Origin: Candidatus Limnocylindria bacterium
Lineage (GTDB): Bacteria > Patescibacteriota > Saccharimonadia > Saccharimonadales > JAGQNK01
NCBI GenBank assembly: GCA_035489815.1
Contig: DATHJH010000042.1
Span: 1,581 to 65,580 of the forward strand
Length of the DNA: 64,000 nt
Direction of reading: 5' to 3'
Below the pieces are notes generated by a model. The model was not told the DNA's origin and made no database searches. It was given only the letters and a program-made list of their open reading frames with translations. Position 1 is the first letter of the stretch; every line of letters starts with the position of its first letter. The position numbers and the translations under genes were made by a program. Of the stretch, positions 3,165 to 52,246 are shown in pieces.

Positions 3165-3521
3165 ATGATTATCGAGCTGCTGCGCTGGTGGTATGGCCCA
3201 GGGTGGATTCTGGCGTTCAAGCGGATAAACACCCGCACGGCGAACGTCGCCCACGCCTTTTCAGCAGGTACTTTGCTCAAAACACTTTTTGCCCCGTGGA
3301 AACGCATCCAGTACACCGGCAAATCTTTTGACGCCAAGATGCATGCCATGATGGACAACCTTGTGTCCCGCACCGTTGGCTTTGTTGTCCGCCTGTTTGT
3401 GCTGATTGCGGCGCTGGTGATGATTGCCGGCAGCGTACTGCTTAGTACCGCCATTGTTGTAGCCTGGCCACTGGTGCCGCTGTTGATTATATTCAGCCTT
3501 TTCAGGGGAATTGCCGGATGA
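3165..3521 (+). CDS. small membrane protein (118 aa)
   Basis: The ORF has two long hydrophobic segments (VGFVVRLFVLIAALVMIAGSVLL, IVVAWPLVPLLIIFSLF). TACAAT at 3153-3158 lies 6 nt upstream of the ATG. The gene is directly followed by the Clp-like ATPase gene. Confidence 0.6.
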   Translation: MIIELLRWWYGPGWILAFKRINTRTANVAHAFSAGTLLKTLFAPWKRIQYTGKSFDAKMHAMMDNLVSRTVGFVVRLFVLIAALVMIAGSVLLSTAIVVAWPLVPLLIIFSLFRGIAG

Positions 3522-26822: not shown

Positions 26823-27248
26823 CTATCTTCGATGTCTGCGTTTCAAACCGGCTACCTGTAAGCGGACGGCTTGGCGGTCCATCAGGCTTTGGGCGTGTTC
26901 CAGGGACACCTGGTCTTTGGCCTCGGCTTTCATTTTTTGGGCTAGTTCGTAAGCTTTTTTGGCCTCTGCTTCATCAATATCCGTTTCATGGTCGGCTTCG
27001 TCCACCAGTACAGACAAAATATTATCGGATACCTCTATGACCCCGCCGTTGGTGGCAAACAGTTCCATGAAGTCATCCGGGTCAGTAGCCTTGCGACGAA
27101 CTTTTATAACCCCATGCGTGGCCACACTAATCAGCGGCATATGGCCGGGCAATACACCAATCTGGCCGGCCATAGTAGGCAGCTGCACCTCGTAGACATC
27201 ATCGTCAAATTTAGTACCACTGATAGTCTCTAATTTTAAACGAATCAC
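26823..27248 (-). CDS. atpC: F1 ATP synthase subunit epsilon
   Basis: GTG start. MIRLKLETISGTKFDDDVYEVQLPTMAGQIGVLPGHMPLIS is a typical epsilon N-terminus. Last gene of the operon. Confidence 0.9.
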   Translation of the reverse strand: MIRLKLETISGTKFDDDVYEVQLPTMAGQIGVLPGHMPLISVATHGVIKVRRKATDPDDFMELFATNGGVIEVSDNILSVLVDEADHETDIDEAEAKKAYELAQKMKAEAKDQVSLEHAQSLMDRQAVRLQVAGLKRRHRR

Positions 27249-27271
27249 TTTGTGATTCCTTTAAAATTAGG

Positions 27272-27299
27272 AAGTGAGGAGTGAGGAGTGAGGAGTGCG
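27272..27299. repeat. four tandem heptamers (R)AGTG(A/C)G
   Basis: aagtgag gagtgag gagtgag gagtgcg lies directly downstream of the four-helix-bundle ORF stop. The last copy forms the 3' half of the stem enclosing that ORF. Confidence 0.7.
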
Positions 27300-27300
27300 A

Positions 27301-27696
27301 TCATTTGCGATTCCTTGTAGATTTTATGAGACCGATTAATAATTTATGACCTTTTACGCTTTGACTATATAGGAGAAGCCTTGCATCTTCGTTTATATAG
27401 CCCACGTCAAGGGCAATGTACATAAAGCTCTGAAGTTCAGTTAGCGATCCGGCGGCAATGGTATAAAAATGAAGTTTATCAGCAATGGTTTGCCGGCTAA
27501 AACCTTCTGCTATATTGGCCGATACGGAGCTGGCTGCACGACGCATTTGGTTTGTCAGCGCGAACTGCTCGTCTTTAGGAAATTGACGAGTCAATATATA
27601 GGTTTGCTTCGCCAGCTCCCGGGCAGCCTGCCAGGCAAGTAGCTTTTCAAACGAATCCAGCTTACCGGGTTTTTCTTCTGACTCCACTCTTCGCAC
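27301..27696 (-). CDS. four-helix-bundle protein (23S rRNA intervening-sequence protein family, TIGR02436/PF05635-like)
   Basis: FEKLLAWQAARELAKQTY...FPKDEQFALTNQMRRAASSVSANIAEGFSR...AAGSLTELQS matches the family pattern. It is inserted between atpD and atpC. The start is GTG 27696 or GTG 27687. Confidence 0.85.
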   Translation of the reverse strand: MRRVESEEKPGKLDSFEKLLAWQAARELAKQTYILTRQFPKDEQFALTNQMRRAASSVSANIAEGFSRQTIADKLHFYTIAAGSLTELQSFMYIALDVGYINEDARLLLYSQSVKGHKLLIGLIKSTRNRK

Positions 27697-27713
27697 TCCT
27701 AACTTCGTTAAAG

Positions 27714-29433
<1,720 letters not shown>

Positions 29434-29599
29434 TTTTGAATTGCCTCCATACTCATCGCATTCATCTTAATCATTGATCACCATCCTCTCGCCCCAAGTT
29501 GTCAAGGGACCTCTCTTTCAAGCGGCGGCCAAGATCCAGCTCAAATTCGCTTTGCTGAGTCCATAGTTTGAAAGGGTTTTTCCATTCCATTATTTTTTC

Positions 29600-29941
29600 C
29601 TATCCACCCCAGTTACCAGTAAAATTGCGCATTACTCTCTCGGCCTCAACATCTGTTCTATTCTCTACCGCCATCTGAATGCCTTGTTCGTATGAAACTA
29701 CAATCTCACGGGCAATTTGCAAGGCTGCCCAGTCTAATGCCTCGGGCGTCATTACTCGATCTTCAGCTAAGGCATTCTCAAGGATACTGGTAGCATCAAC
29801 TCTGTGTTCTTCAAACCTCGCCACCATAGCACCTTCGTAGGCTGCCCGATCGTCCGAACCAAAAGCCTCTATCCAGGGCTGGACTTCACGATCGCCAATA
29901 GGACTTTGGCCTAAATTCAGTCCATCAGTTCCTTCGGTCAT
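29600..29941 (-). CDS. acidic ORFan (113 aa) embedded in the atp operon
   Basis: The ATG overlaps (ATGA) the stop of a relic copy of the atpG 3' end. The GGAGG inside that relic lies 7 nt upstream. Confidence 0.55.
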   Translation of the reverse strand: MTEGTDGLNLGQSPIGDREVQPWIEAFGSDDRAAYEGAMVARFEEHRVDATSILENALAEDRVMTPEALDWAALQIAREIVVSYEQGIQMAVENRTDVEAERVMRNFTGNWGG

Positions 29942-29947
29942 TTTATA

Positions 29948-29980
29948 GCCTCCGCGCCGCCGGTTATTTCTGCTACTTCC
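29948..29980 (-). repeat. relic duplicate of the atpG 3' end (encodes EVAEITGGAEAIK*)
   Basis: 31 of 33 nt are identical to 30552-30584, the real atpG C-terminus (ELAEITGGAEAIK*). Confidence 0.85.
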
Positions 29981-29984
29981 GGCA

Positions 29985-30545
29985 TCATGGATACAATAAC
30001 TCCTCTTTGATTTTTGCTATATCCCTGCCAACATAAATGACGTGCTTGATTTCGAACAATTCTCTAATGGCTGGAGTCATTGCAACACGCCGACTAGGAT
30101 TAGGGTGGGCAGTTTCAAAAGACTTGACCTGCAACGGGTCTGTTTGGGTAAACACTGGCTTCTCGCCTACTTCTCTGACGTGACTAATGTTGCCCACATC
30201 CCATGGGAGGGGGGAGTCGTATCGTGGGGTGTGCGGACCTACTGTAGATAACTCCGGGAAACGATCGACGACCCTCTGCTGTCTGTCGTTAAGTTTTTCA
30301 CGGCGTACTATAGGGTTGGCGTTGTACACTGCAACCACCAGAGCATGTATATCATCTCCCTCCATGACCTCATGCCATAGGCGAAGATCGTCCGAGGTGG
30401 GGTACGGAGGATTGTCAAGTGGCATGACGTCGATACCAAAGCGATTCGGTACATAGCCCGTCCAGCTCTCCATGACACTCCCATCATCTGAACGGGGGAC
30501 AGATAACGCCACGGTTACTCTTTCTGAGTCTGGAATCTTATTCAC
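29985..30545 (-). CDS. ORFan (186 aa) embedded in the atp operon, bracketed by the atpG 3'-end duplication
   Basis: GTG 30545 overlaps the atpG stop (GTGA), with GGAGG 7 nt upstream. No motif recognised. Confidence 0.55.
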   Translation of the reverse strand: MNKIPDSERVTVALSVPRSDDGSVMESWTGYVPNRFGIDVMPLDNPPYPTSDDLRLWHEVMEGDDIHALVVAVYNANPIVRREKLNDRQQRVVDRFPELSTVGPHTPRYDSPLPWDVGNISHVREVGEKPVFTQTDPLQVKSFETAHPNPSRRVAMTPAIRELFEIKHVIYVGRDIAKIKEELLYP

Positions 30546-31411
30546 TTGATGGCCTCCGCGCCGCCGGTTATTTCTGCCAGTTCCTGGGTGATTGCTGCCT
30601 GGCGGGCGGTGTTAAAGGCCAGGGTCAGGTCGTCTATCAAATCGGATGCGTTGTCGGTGGCATTTTTCATGGCCATCATGCGCATGGATTGTTCTGATGC
30701 AAAGCTCTCCAGGATAGCCTGCCAGATCTGGACCTCAATCAGCCGCAGTGCCACGCTGTCCAGCACTTCTTTGGGCGAAGGTTCCAGCGTGACATTATCC
30801 AGGCTATGGGCGTCTTCGTCGGTTTCCTCAAAACTGGCCGGCAACACCTGCAGGGCAGAAGCAATCTGGACAAGGTTGGACTTGAACTCGGTATAAAGCA
30901 GCTTGACCTCGTCCACGAATCCTTCAGCATACTGTTCTGTAATGGTATTCAGCAGTGGCCGCAGGTCATTGGCATCCGGCTGATCGCCAATGTCGTTGTA
31001 AACAGCCAATAGCTCTACGCCCTCCAGGGTGCGGACAAAGTTGGCACCTTTTTTGCCGATGGTTATGACCTTGGCGCTCACACCTTTGGCCTGGTCCTCA
31101 CGGATGGCTCGGGTTAGGCTTTTTAAAACATTGGTGTCATATGCGCCGGCCAAACCCTGGTTACTGGTGACAACCACATACAAAGCACGCTGTATGTCAC
31201 GCCTGGTAAACAGCGGATGGTCTTCTACATCTGTAATCTTGCTGAGGCGGGTCAGCAGGGAATAGGCTGCAATGCGATAATTCCGTGAACGCTGAGCAAA
31301 TTCCTGCGCCCGGCGCATTTTACTAGCCGCCACCAATTCCATGGCCTTAGTAATCTGCCGAGTGTTCTTGACTGAACCAATTCGTCGCTTCAGCGTAATC
31401 GTATTAGCCAT
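30542..31411 (-). CDS. atpG: F1 ATP synthase subunit gamma
   Basis: The ORF track gives 30542-31477. ATG 31411 yields MANTITLKRRIGSVKNTRQITKAMELVAASKMRRAQ, the canonical gamma N-terminus. The C-terminus is ...ITQELAEITGGAEAIK. Confidence 0.92.
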   Translation of the reverse strand: MANTITLKRRIGSVKNTRQITKAMELVAASKMRRAQEFAQRSRNYRIAAYSLLTRLSKITDVEDHPLFTRRDIQRALYVVVTSNQGLAGAYDTNVLKSLTRAIREDQAKGVSAKVITIGKKGANFVRTLEGVELLAVYNDIGDQPDANDLRPLLNTITEQYAEGFVDEVKLLYTEFKSNLVQIASALQVLPASFEETDEDAHSLDNVTLEPSPKEVLDSVALRLIEVQIWQAILESFASEQSMRMMAMKNATDNASDLIDDLTLAFNTARQAAITQELAEITGGAEAIK

Positions 31412-31754
31412 CAATATCTCCAGCCTGGCCGTCGATAATTCGCTGCATAAACTCAGCCAGACAGACCTCTCTGCCAATCAGAGTTCTGGTAGAAGTAAGC
31501 GTTGGGTCTGGGTCAGATGTCAAACTCCCGTCAAGCAACAGCCCGAGTACATGGCCGACATTACCCTGATTATGCGTAAGATCGTTTTCTATTGCGCCCG
31601 ACTCCACCAAGCTTACCTCAAGGATGGCCCCGAGCTGCGTGGCTAATTTGTCGTCCGGCATAACGGCAAAGTATTCTTCCATACCCGCTCTGTAAGTCTG
31701 AATGCGAGGATCTTCCCGCCAATTTTCAGCTGGTGGTTGCATGGGACTTGTCAC
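31404..31754 (-). CDS. acidic ORFan (116 aa) between atpA and atpG
   Basis: GTG 31754 lies 2 nt after the atpA stop (an internal ATG is at 31742). Its stop overlaps the atpG start by 8 nt. No motif recognised. Confidence 0.5.
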   Translation of the reverse strand: MTSPMQPPAENWREDPRIQTYRAGMEEYFAVMPDDKLATQLGAILEVSLVESGAIENDLTHNQGNVGHVLGLLLDGSLTSDPDPTLTSTRTLIGREVCLAEFMQRIIDGQAGDIDG

Positions 31755-51466: not shown

Positions 51467-51484
51467 TCCCGGGTAGCTCAATGG
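51467..51484 (+). repeat. duplicate of the tRNA-Asn 5' end
   Basis: tcccgggtagctcaatgg matches tccggagtagctcaatgg at 51907-51924 in 16 of 18 positions. Confidence 0.6.
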
Positions 51485-51554
51485 GTTCTCTGCACCTAAA
51501 AGGACATACTCAGCCCGCTTGCGGTAGAGTAAAGAATACTCTACCGCAACGATT

Positions 51555-51836
51555 ATGCCCAAAGAAAAGCGTACATATGCAGACAGAAGAGAGTACTTTA
51601 TTATGGCGGTTTCAAAACGCCGCCGCAGGATTAAAGAAAAAGCGATCGAACTCCTAGGCAGCAGGTGTCAAGTGTGCAGATATGACCGCTATCAGGGAGC
51701 CTTGATTTTCATCACGTTGACCCAAGCACAAAAGAGCTTCGGCATTAGCGGCAATGGGCACTCCCGGTCATGGGAGCGAGTAAAAGAAGAACTAGCCAAG
51801 TGTGTACTGGTTTGCGCCAACTGTCACGGGAGATAG
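51555..51836 (+). pseudogene. decayed small HNH endonuclease gene
   Basis: The ORF stays open but reads ALIFITLTQAQKS where an alternative frame of 51704-51736 reads DFHHVDPSTKE, the expected HNH block. After CANCH the expected REI.AGL tail is again in another frame (stop at 51881-83). Confidence 0.65.
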
Positions 51837-51906: not shown

Positions 51907-52246
51907 TCCGGAGTAGCTCAATGGTAGAGCGATTGGCTGTCAGTTGGCAGCGCACCTGAGTAATCAGGTGATGAAAACAGGGTGAATTGCAGGAAACCTA
52001 CATCCTCGCAGAGGACACGGCAATCTGCAGCCAAGCTAGAAAGAGCAAAAGTTCATTAATGAACTGAGGTTTTCTAGAAGGTTCAGAGACTAGGGAGTGA
52101 GACTCAACGATAATCTCCCCGCGAGCGCCCTGCATCCTACGTAGCTTTATGCGAAGGAGGATGATGAAATAGTCCACGCTCCTGCGAAAGCAGAAGGTCT
52201 AAGTGTAACCAATAGGTTGCCGGTTCGAGTCCGGCCTCCGGAGCCA
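51907..52246 (+). tRNA. tRNA-Asn(GUU) interrupted by a group I intron (exon 1 51907-51940, exon 2 52206-52246, CCA encoded)
   Basis: The joined exons give a canonical cloverleaf: acceptor UCCGGAG/CUCCGGA, D arm GCUC-AAUGGUA-GAGC, anticodon arm AUUGG-CUGUUAA-CCAAU, T arm GCCGG-UUCGAGU-CCGGC, discriminator G73 and CCA. Confidence 0.8.
51941..52205 (+). ncRNA. group I intron (265 nt, no ORF), probably of the tRNA-intron (IC3-like) type
   Basis: P1 forms between exon GCUGU and intron GCAGC with a U.G pair at the splice site. P10 forms between intron GUUG and exon-2 UAAC. Other marks are a P2 hairpin with a GUAA loop (51953-70), AGAGACUA at 52085-92, a GAAA-capped hairpin at 52182-93 and a terminal G at 52205. 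Confidence 0.75.

Follow-up and report, generated by a model that had tools for sequence, protein, structure and literature searches.

An IVS-like cassette with an IVP gene between inverted heptamer arrays at the atpD–atpC junction

The IVP gene and its neighbors

The window, that is, the whole stretch of 64,000 nucleotides of DNA that was analyzed, carries on its minus strand atpG, three ORFs without a Pfam match, atpD, an IVP ORF, and atpC, in this order (Table 1). Judged by related loci, the organism belongs to the Saccharimonadales (Patescibacteria). A first-pass annotation made from the sequence had placed the IVP gene between atpD and atpC, and the Pfam matches of both neighbors agreed with that placement. 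The stop codon of atpD is TAG at 27716–27714 and that of the IVP ORF is TGA at 27303–27301. Next to the insert, atpC has its own SD, and its stop/start overlap with atpD is gone. Between atpD and atpC, the coding strand had no promoter- or terminator-like site.

Table 1. Features of the atp locus in the window
Feature	Position	Strand	Evidence
atpG	30542–31477	-	ORF list and Pfam
Three ORFs between atpG and atpD	29101–30545	-	Without Pfam match
atpD (F1 beta subunit), upstream host cistron	27714–29096	-	Pfam ATP-synt_ab, E 3e-72
H1, 8-bp hairpin GUUAAAGC-AUA-GCUUUAAC across the atpD stop codon	27707–27725	-	Inverted repeat I21
Whole insert, 465 nt	27249–27713	-	Comparison with related genomes whose atpD/atpC junction is empty
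5′ arm, purine-rich degenerate heptamers AGGAGUG, CGAAGAGUG, GAGU	27681–27706	-	Inverted repeats I1, I4, I5; ortholog flanks
IVP/S23p four-helix-bundle gene	27301–27687 (to 27696 with the alternative start)	-	Profile matches
3′ arm, UCG + three CACUCCU + CACUUCCU	27269–27300	-	TRF, pattern search, inverted repeats
H3, 19-bp hairpin with one mismatch and AAA loop	27230–27270	-	Inverted repeat I2
atpC (F1 epsilon subunit), downstream host cistron	26823–27248	-	Pfam ATP-synt_DE_N

The IVP ORF matched Pfam PF05635 (23S_rRNA_IVP) with an E of 3.1e-33 and 114.6 bits against a cut-off of 33.8, the match spanning profile positions 1–104 of 106, and it matched TIGR02436 with 107 bits against a cut-off of 24. 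The PDB entries matched by sequence were 2GSC (XCC0516; E 5.8e-18) and 2RLD (E 4.4e-07). The gene had been assigned to the four-helix-bundle family of the 23S rRNA IVS, and PF05635, TIGR02436, and 2GSC all agreed with this assignment. By sequence, the IVP is a relative of the solved pentameric four-helix-bundle proteins. A fold kinship with Avd, also suggested earlier, holds as a distant relation, seen in weak matches to bAvd (19.9 bits) and DivGenRetAVD (23 bits), but both scores were below the respective cut-offs of 40 and 80, and identification of the IVP as an Avd was rejected. It was also rejected as a DGR component, since it is flanked by atpD and atpC and has no adjacent reverse transcriptase. 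A phmmer search of all ORFs of the window found no second IVP gene.

The gene had been annotated at 27301–27696; its ORF and stop codon stood, but the start is probably GTG at 27687, which is preceded by AGGAG with an 8-nt spacer and gives a protein of 128 aa, the same length as that of the best database match, P0001. The alternative GTG at 27696 would give 131 aa and falls within the SD, and in the closest ortholog (L163) the upstream start position is obligatory. In the orthogroup, IVP had a median dN of 0.24, below the 0.34 of atpC and above the 0.13 of atpD, and dS was saturated; IVP is therefore under purifying selection.

Two further features of the window were recorded. The three ORFs between atpG and atpD encode 186, 113, and 110 aa and have no match in Pfam or NCBIfam. 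The last 26 nt of atpG, including GGAGG (30577–30552), are duplicated exactly after the first of these ORFs (29973–29948), so that the next ORF again has this SD and stop/start setting; this insertion, with its junction duplication, is of a different kind from the IVP cassette. On the plus strand, a group I intron (Rfam RF00028, 81 bits, 51931–52196) interrupts the anticodon loop of a tRNA (region 51907–52246) whose 5′ and 3′ exons lie at approximately 51907–51938 and 52205–52246 and which was not reported by ARAGORN. Just upstream of this split tRNA are an HNH-like ORF (51528–51833) with CxxC...CxxCH motifs and a tRNA-like fragment near 51470.

Inverted arrays and border hairpins of the insert

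In the mRNA sense, AGGAGUGCGA (27700–27691) is the exact complement of UCGCACUCCU (27300–27291), giving a stem of 10 bp. Beyond one U–C mismatch the stem gains three pairs, the arms then being 14 nt long (27287–27300 and 27691–27704) and 93% complementary; the 10 bp were as first described, but the extension had been counted as two pairs. The inverted-repeat search also found a slipped register of 26 nt at 81% (27271–27296 and 27681–27706). The 5′ arm consists of degenerate inverted copies of the 3′ heptamer (AGGAGUG, AAGAGUG, GAGU) and holds both candidate GTG starts (27696 and 27687) as well as the IVP SD AGGAG at 27700–27696, in agreement with the earlier placement of the SD within the 5′ strand of the stem. 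The 3′ arm opens at the first base past the IVP stop. Tandem heptamers had been noticed downstream of the ORF, and TRF reported them at 27273–27297 with period 7, 3.6 copies, and 100% match, the top tandem-repeat score in the window; a 14-mer pattern of the heptamer had three matches versus 0.29 expected.

When the whole region was folded, the MFE structure contained a long-range helix that joins the purine-rich 5′ arm with the 3′ array and that was absent from the centroid structure (z -2.9). In the ensemble approximately 16 long-range pairs were expected, compared with 5.8 when the 3′ arm was shuffled. Together with the inverted repeats of 14 and 26 nt, these pairs bear out the claim that the ORF is enclosed by a stem, and the observation in the window itself is real. 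No Rfam family matched the cassette, no rRNA was found in the window, and a search of the 64-kb window for an RNase III signature motif was negative.

Each border of the insert has a hairpin of its own. In H1, the final codons of atpD form the 5′ arm and the first bases of the insert form the 3′ arm. H1 was found in six of the 11 orthologous loci, where 48 of 48 cells were paired and four of the eight pairs had compensatory double changes; none of 500 shuffles was as good, in a test of six loci picked for having the hairpin. H3 encloses the atpC SD (AAGGAA, 27261–27256) and the GTG start (27248–27246), has a dG of -19.9 (z -7.3), and occurs with compensating changes also in L003 (z -6.1). Five other orthologs have, in place of H3, a GCUCC-NNN-GGAGC over the atpC SD, the GCUCC being supplied by the last CUCC of the 3′ array.

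Orthologous junctions and related cassettes

The orthogroup comprised the window, L001–L004, and L163–L168 (11 loci with DNA), as well as the P0006 contig, for which the gene table alone was used; the IVPs were 68–87% identical. All 12 examined orthologs were arranged atpD–IVP–atpC, and all 11 loci with DNA had (GGAG+NNN)n before or over the start and (NNN+CUCC)n past the stop. Comparison of native with cross-locus arms gave a permutation p of 0.034 by score and of 0.16 by dG, with incomplete 5′-arm windows for L004 and L164. The native arms beat the cross-locus arms weakly because all have GGAG/CUCC cores, and the covariation of the long stem in the orthogroup was weak.

We surveyed the junction in the loci of the 80 closest atpC relatives from metagenomes, of which 74 had both atpD and atpC. 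In approximately 55 of the 74 the junction was empty, with an overlapping stop/start (TAATG or TAGTG) or a gap of at most 15 nt. L083 and L084 carried an ORF-less hairpin of 111 nt made from GTAGCAA/CTTGCTA arrays (dG -54.5, z -4.4); L084 is the closest relative, at 94% aa identity across atpC and the last ~300 aa of atpD. Other ORF-less heptamer pairs were present at the junction in L119 and L110, and L147 had a different IVP (54% identical) with TAATATG/ATTACAT arrays. Every insert, with or without an ORF, gives atpC an SD, which the empty sites do not have. At this ATP synthase locus, the insertion would have rewired the link between beta and epsilon expression. In an NJ tree of atpD+atpC the orthogroup fell in one clade, intermixed with empty sites; the tree is compatible with a single old gain followed by several losses as well as with gain on repeated occasions.

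About a dozen of the 74 junctions contained unrelated small ORFs (L089, L090, L093, L102/L105, L133, L143, L155, L157/L158, L160/L161). These have roughly 45–90 codons, and several begin at the atpD stop; the pair in L157/L158 looks, by eye, like a small membrane protein. The atpD–atpC junction in related Saccharimonadales is a hot spot of small-gene insertion.

Cassettes were also found at other junctions. L169 has IVP cassettes at atpG–atpD (GAGTCGC; 1440–1990) and after atpD (AGTAGTA; 3300–3447), and the P0006 contig has another IVP gene upstream of atpG. In two related Nostoc plasmids, unrelated cassettes (43% identical) occupy neighboring junctions of one operon; where one plasmid has its cassette, the other has a spacer of 3 nt, which is direct evidence for independent insertion exactly between stop and start codon, with no target duplication. 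Comparison of filled with empty sites, at atpD–atpC and in the Nostoc plasmids, revealed no target-site duplication. Two direct repeats of the window were considered as such duplications and rejected: D2 (27249–27268 and 27304–27323) was not convincingly repeated in the orthologs, and D5 (27700–27711 and 27722–27733) overlaps H1, which does not explain the repeat. The first-pass annotation had held that absence of the cassette from relatives, with no trace of mobility, would count against its reading; the occupied and empty atpD–atpC junctions and the Nostoc plasmids are such traces.

The same architecture was examined in 83 related IVP genes with both flanks, 38–87% identical, from Patescibacteria, Verrucomicrobiota, Bacteroidota, and others. 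Nearly all had short tandem repeats just 5′ of the start, which return as the reverse complement just 3′ of the stop, with a repeat unit that varies by locus (GGATTTT/AAAATCC, GTATTTC/GAAATAC, GTTGAGA/TCTCAAC, TTTTTGG/CCAAAAA). The mean energy of the native flank duplex was -29.6 kcal/mol, compared with -17.7 (S.D. 7.6) for cross-locus duplexes, and the native partner was the best of 82 in 27 of the 83 genes and in the top 5% in 44. Period 7 was best in 68 of the 83 upstream and 64.5 of the 83 downstream flanks, compared with ~10% in controls. The best ungapped arm segment had a median length of 17 nt and was at least 20 nt in 34 of 83. Thus the flanking complementarity, named earlier as a point on which the reading could fail, is kept by all 11 orthologous loci and by most of the 83 genes. 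The description of the heptamers as anti-SD-like applies to this orthogroup (GGAG+NNN/NNN+CUCC) but not elsewhere, where the units are unrelated to the SD (GGAUUUU, GUAUUUC, GUUGAGA, and others).

The arms are polar: G exceeded C in the 5′ arm of 48 of 52 cassettes (p 1e-10; 372 G and 87 C in all), and the 3′ arm was the reverse. This polarity may come from avoidance of start codons and SDs before the downstream gene or from a requirement on the sense RNA. Sense-strand mismatches in the arms showed no excess of G·U (25 G·U vs. 34 A·C), and complementarity may therefore be kept up at the DNA level. The neighbors were co-directional upstream in 71 of 79 and downstream in 68 of 81 cases, the gap having a median of 41 nt on the upstream and 48 nt on the downstream side. 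The cassettes were placed between cistrons of one operon or pathway, the hosts by Pfam matches of the neighbors being pheS–pheT, carA–carB, porD–porA, livH–livM, thyA–folA, pilB–pilC (twice), ssb–efp, and valS–tyrS. An Rfam scan of 20 related loci found no IVP gene inside rRNA, a tblastn search of 50,697 phage records gave no match, and the plasmid matches were nearly all cyanobacterial.

Some individual loci deserve mention. In two Patescibacteria (L030, 747–1589, and L061, 2501–3358) the IVP cassette lies immediately 5′ of a tmRNA gene (Rfam RF00023), and in an Oribacterium contig (L056, 695–1099) it lies just 3′ of a tRNA; the cassettes therefore also adjoin structured-RNA genes. Where several cassettes occur in one operon or locus the units mostly differ, as in L021 with GGATTTT and GGACGTT, and such differing units look like private pairing addresses. 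Counter to this, the three tandem cassette copies of L029 all have GTATTTC.

Proposed role and relation to known elements

We consider the best explanation, at a probability of roughly 60%, to be that the insert is an IVS-type cassette in the co-transcribed atpD–atpC junction, whose stem would pair and be cut by RNase III, leaving atpC decoupled. Transcription of the operon would run through the cassette, and the 3′ array, once made, would pair with the 5′ arm, burying the IVP SD and start in an imperfect duplex of 14–26 bp. RNase III may then cleave the duplex as in the rRNA IVS of Coxiella and Leptospira, by which the IVP message would be inactivated or the IVP segment released. The cut would yield a piece that ends with atpD and is capped by H1 and a piece that starts with atpC and is headed by H3. 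Ribosomes starting or stopping on IVP would overlap the arms and keep the stem open, and we therefore propose that translation of IVP and cleavage are mutually exclusive. Having lost its ancestral stop/start coupling to atpD, atpC would use the SD at the 3′ edge of the cassette, damped by H3. As the first-pass annotation had proposed, RNase III may cut the stem and the stem may gate translation. Against cleavage stands the perfect stem of 10 bp (14 with one mismatch), which is shorter than the 28 bp of Coxiella and than typical RNase III substrates; against the explanation in general stand the centroid fold without the long stem, the lack of a G·U excess among the arm mismatches, the weak covariation of the arms in the orthogroup, the negative search for RNase III in the window, the 20 Rfam-scanned loci with no IVP gene inside rRNA, and the finding of H1 in only six of 11 orthologous loci.

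The arrays could alternatively act at the DNA level, as the ends of a mobile or recombinogenic cassette or as sites for its insertion or maintenance, perhaps bound by pentameric IVP; template-switch or slippage repair would keep them complementary, and the RNA stem would be a by-product. This would suit the G·U mismatches, which do not exceed A·C in the arms, the unrelated occupants of atpD–atpC (the 54% identical IVP with TAATATG in L147 and the ORF-less L083/84, L119, and L110), the filled and empty sites at 3-nt spacers of the Nostoc plasmids, the MITE-like nature of the ORF-less derivatives, and the varying heptamer copy number across Coxiella strains. We nevertheless regard it as rather unlikely, as neither a transposase nor a recombinase is present, filled sites set against empty ones have no target-site duplication, the orthogroup is fixed at one site through deep divergence, and a purely DNA-level palindrome would need neither the transcription-related polarity of the arms nor the co-orientation with the host genes. 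It is also conceivable that the stem is a translational device without cleavage, in which the 3′ CUCC repeats mask the IVP RBS with its GGAG repeats and also, in some orthologs, the SD of atpC, so tuning the synthesis of IVP and the epsilon subunit after the loss of atpD/atpC coupling. The position of the IVP SD and start within the 5′ arm, the GGAG+NNN/NNN+CUCC units in 11 of 11 orthologs, the GCUCC-NNN-GGAGC with the atpC SD in five orthologs, the burial of the atpC RBS by H3 in the window and L003, and the stop/start overlap of the empty sites are consistent with such a device. The heptamers of most other family members, however, are without SD or anti-SD content, which means that mimicry of the SD cannot be what they do in general, and the studied IVS relative, that of Coxiella, is cleaved; we find this account slightly less likely than the DNA-level one. 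Both a DNA-level role and a purely translational role of the arrays are live possibilities, and both are compatible with the IVS-type explanation.

Another reading is that the F1Fo ATP synthase of this clade has recruited IVP as an accessory protein or regulator, which would account for the conservation and the fixed position of IVP; the location of 12 of 12 orthologs between atpD and atpC, the dN of IVP below that of atpC, and the other IVP genes at atpG–atpD (L169) and upstream of atpG (P0006 contig) agree with it. On the other hand, the closest atpD/atpC relatives (L084–L088) have no IVP or the hairpin alone, the family is spread over many unrelated operons, and no link to ATP synthase is found in Pfam, NCBIfam, or PDB, which makes recruitment very improbable. 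As for chance complementarity combined with a biologically meaningless simple repeat made by slippage, short inverted repeats are common and the inverted-repeat search found many weak ones in the window, but period 7 and the complementarity of native pairs extend across 83 genes and are retained in all orthologs; the comparative data refute this reading, to which we give next to no probability.

The IVS elements and the S23p/IVP protein family were known already. A full-text literature search, which covered few of the subscription journals, found neither a cassette of this anatomy in a protein-coding operon nor, within the same scope, its conservation in the atp operon or inverted period-7 arrays at intercistronic junctions generally; what it did find were the Coxiella heptamers and the unexplained GGGAATC/GGGGAYT repeats. 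Tentatively, and at a little under even odds, we suggest that S23p cassettes with inverted 7-nt arrays form a widespread class, undescribed in the literature covered, that inserts exactly between stop and start codon of genes transcribed together, of which the 23S IVS would be the special case noticed first, and which would also explain the STRR/Xanthomonas repeats. If so, the cassettes bring their own RNA-processing stem together with an SD for the downstream host gene, and they decay to ORF-less heptamer hairpins. The origin, function, and conserved ORF of the rRNA IVS have been a puzzle since about 1990, as have the heptameric intergenic repeats; were the IVS one habitat of a general intercistronic cassette, the question would become testable on mRNAs. 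For Patescibacteria, Verrucomicrobiota, Bacteroidota, and cyanobacteria, the annotation of operons would then gain a recurrent element able to split transcripts and reset translational coupling. Why the period is strictly 7 nt while the units are specific to lineages would need a mechanistic explanation.

Among known systems, intercistronic RNase III sites and REP/BIME-type palindromes, such as those of phage T7 early mRNA and rpsO–pnp, are stems that split or stabilize parts of polycistronic mRNAs. The cassette resembles them in having a stem between cistrons, but they are local hairpins with no enclosed gene, 7-nt period, or patchy cassette-like spread. With transposons and MITEs it shares inverted ends, but it lacks a transposase and target-site duplication, and to the Avd proteins of DGRs it is connected solely by a distant four-helix-bundle fold kinship, the IVP of the window not being an Avd.

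The cyanobacterial heptameric repeats called STRR were reportedly described in 1990 from Calothrix. The STRR and GGGAATC arrays are, like those of the window, tandem 7-nt units in intergenic spacers, whereas the arrays of the window form an inverted pair around an IVP gene. In Calothrix and Nostoc plasmids (L170–L172), G-rich heptamers of the STRR/GGGGAYT type (GGGTGTA, CAGGAGT, GGGAAAA) flank IVP genes that bear the annotation ‘S23 ribosomal protein’ or ‘four helix bundle protein’. The GGGAATC/GGGGA(C/T)T heptamer arrays of Xanthomonas and Nostoc are intergenic, some of them within operons (pecE–pecF) and some in inverted pairs, and they have been described as unexplained and without an associated gene or function (PMC4692102). 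We infer that the IVP-flanking arrays and the STRR/GGGAATC repeats may have a common origin.

The rRNA IVS with an S23p ORF (Coxiella, Leptospira) share with the cassette the protein family and the terminal inverted repeats around the ORF. In the 23S IVS of Coxiella burnetii (helix 45), the S23p ORF follows an AG-rich SD and three tandem GACAGAT heptamers, the copy number of which differs among strains (PMC4990558). The terminal stem has 28 bp, and RACE-mapped RNase III cuts lie within it, the 5′ cut being at the first repeat, whereby the SD is removed (PMC4990558). As in Coxiella, the tandem heptamers in the arm beside the S23p start make up one strand of the stem, and the SD lies in or near the stem. 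Unlike the rRNA IVS, the cassette has the atpD–atpC operon as its host, Rfam having found no rRNA in the window; its stem is shorter (14–26 imperfect bp vs. 28), it has extra hairpins at the borders of the host genes, and its ORF, which has a good SD, evolves under purifying selection, in contrast with the decaying and apparently untranslated ORF of Coxiella. The reading of the insert as an IVS-like cassette within an mRNA is upheld by this comparison, as an S23p/IVP ORF lies within heptamer-built terminal inverted repeats in both, and the cassette of the window and the Coxiella IVS consist of the same parts in the same order.
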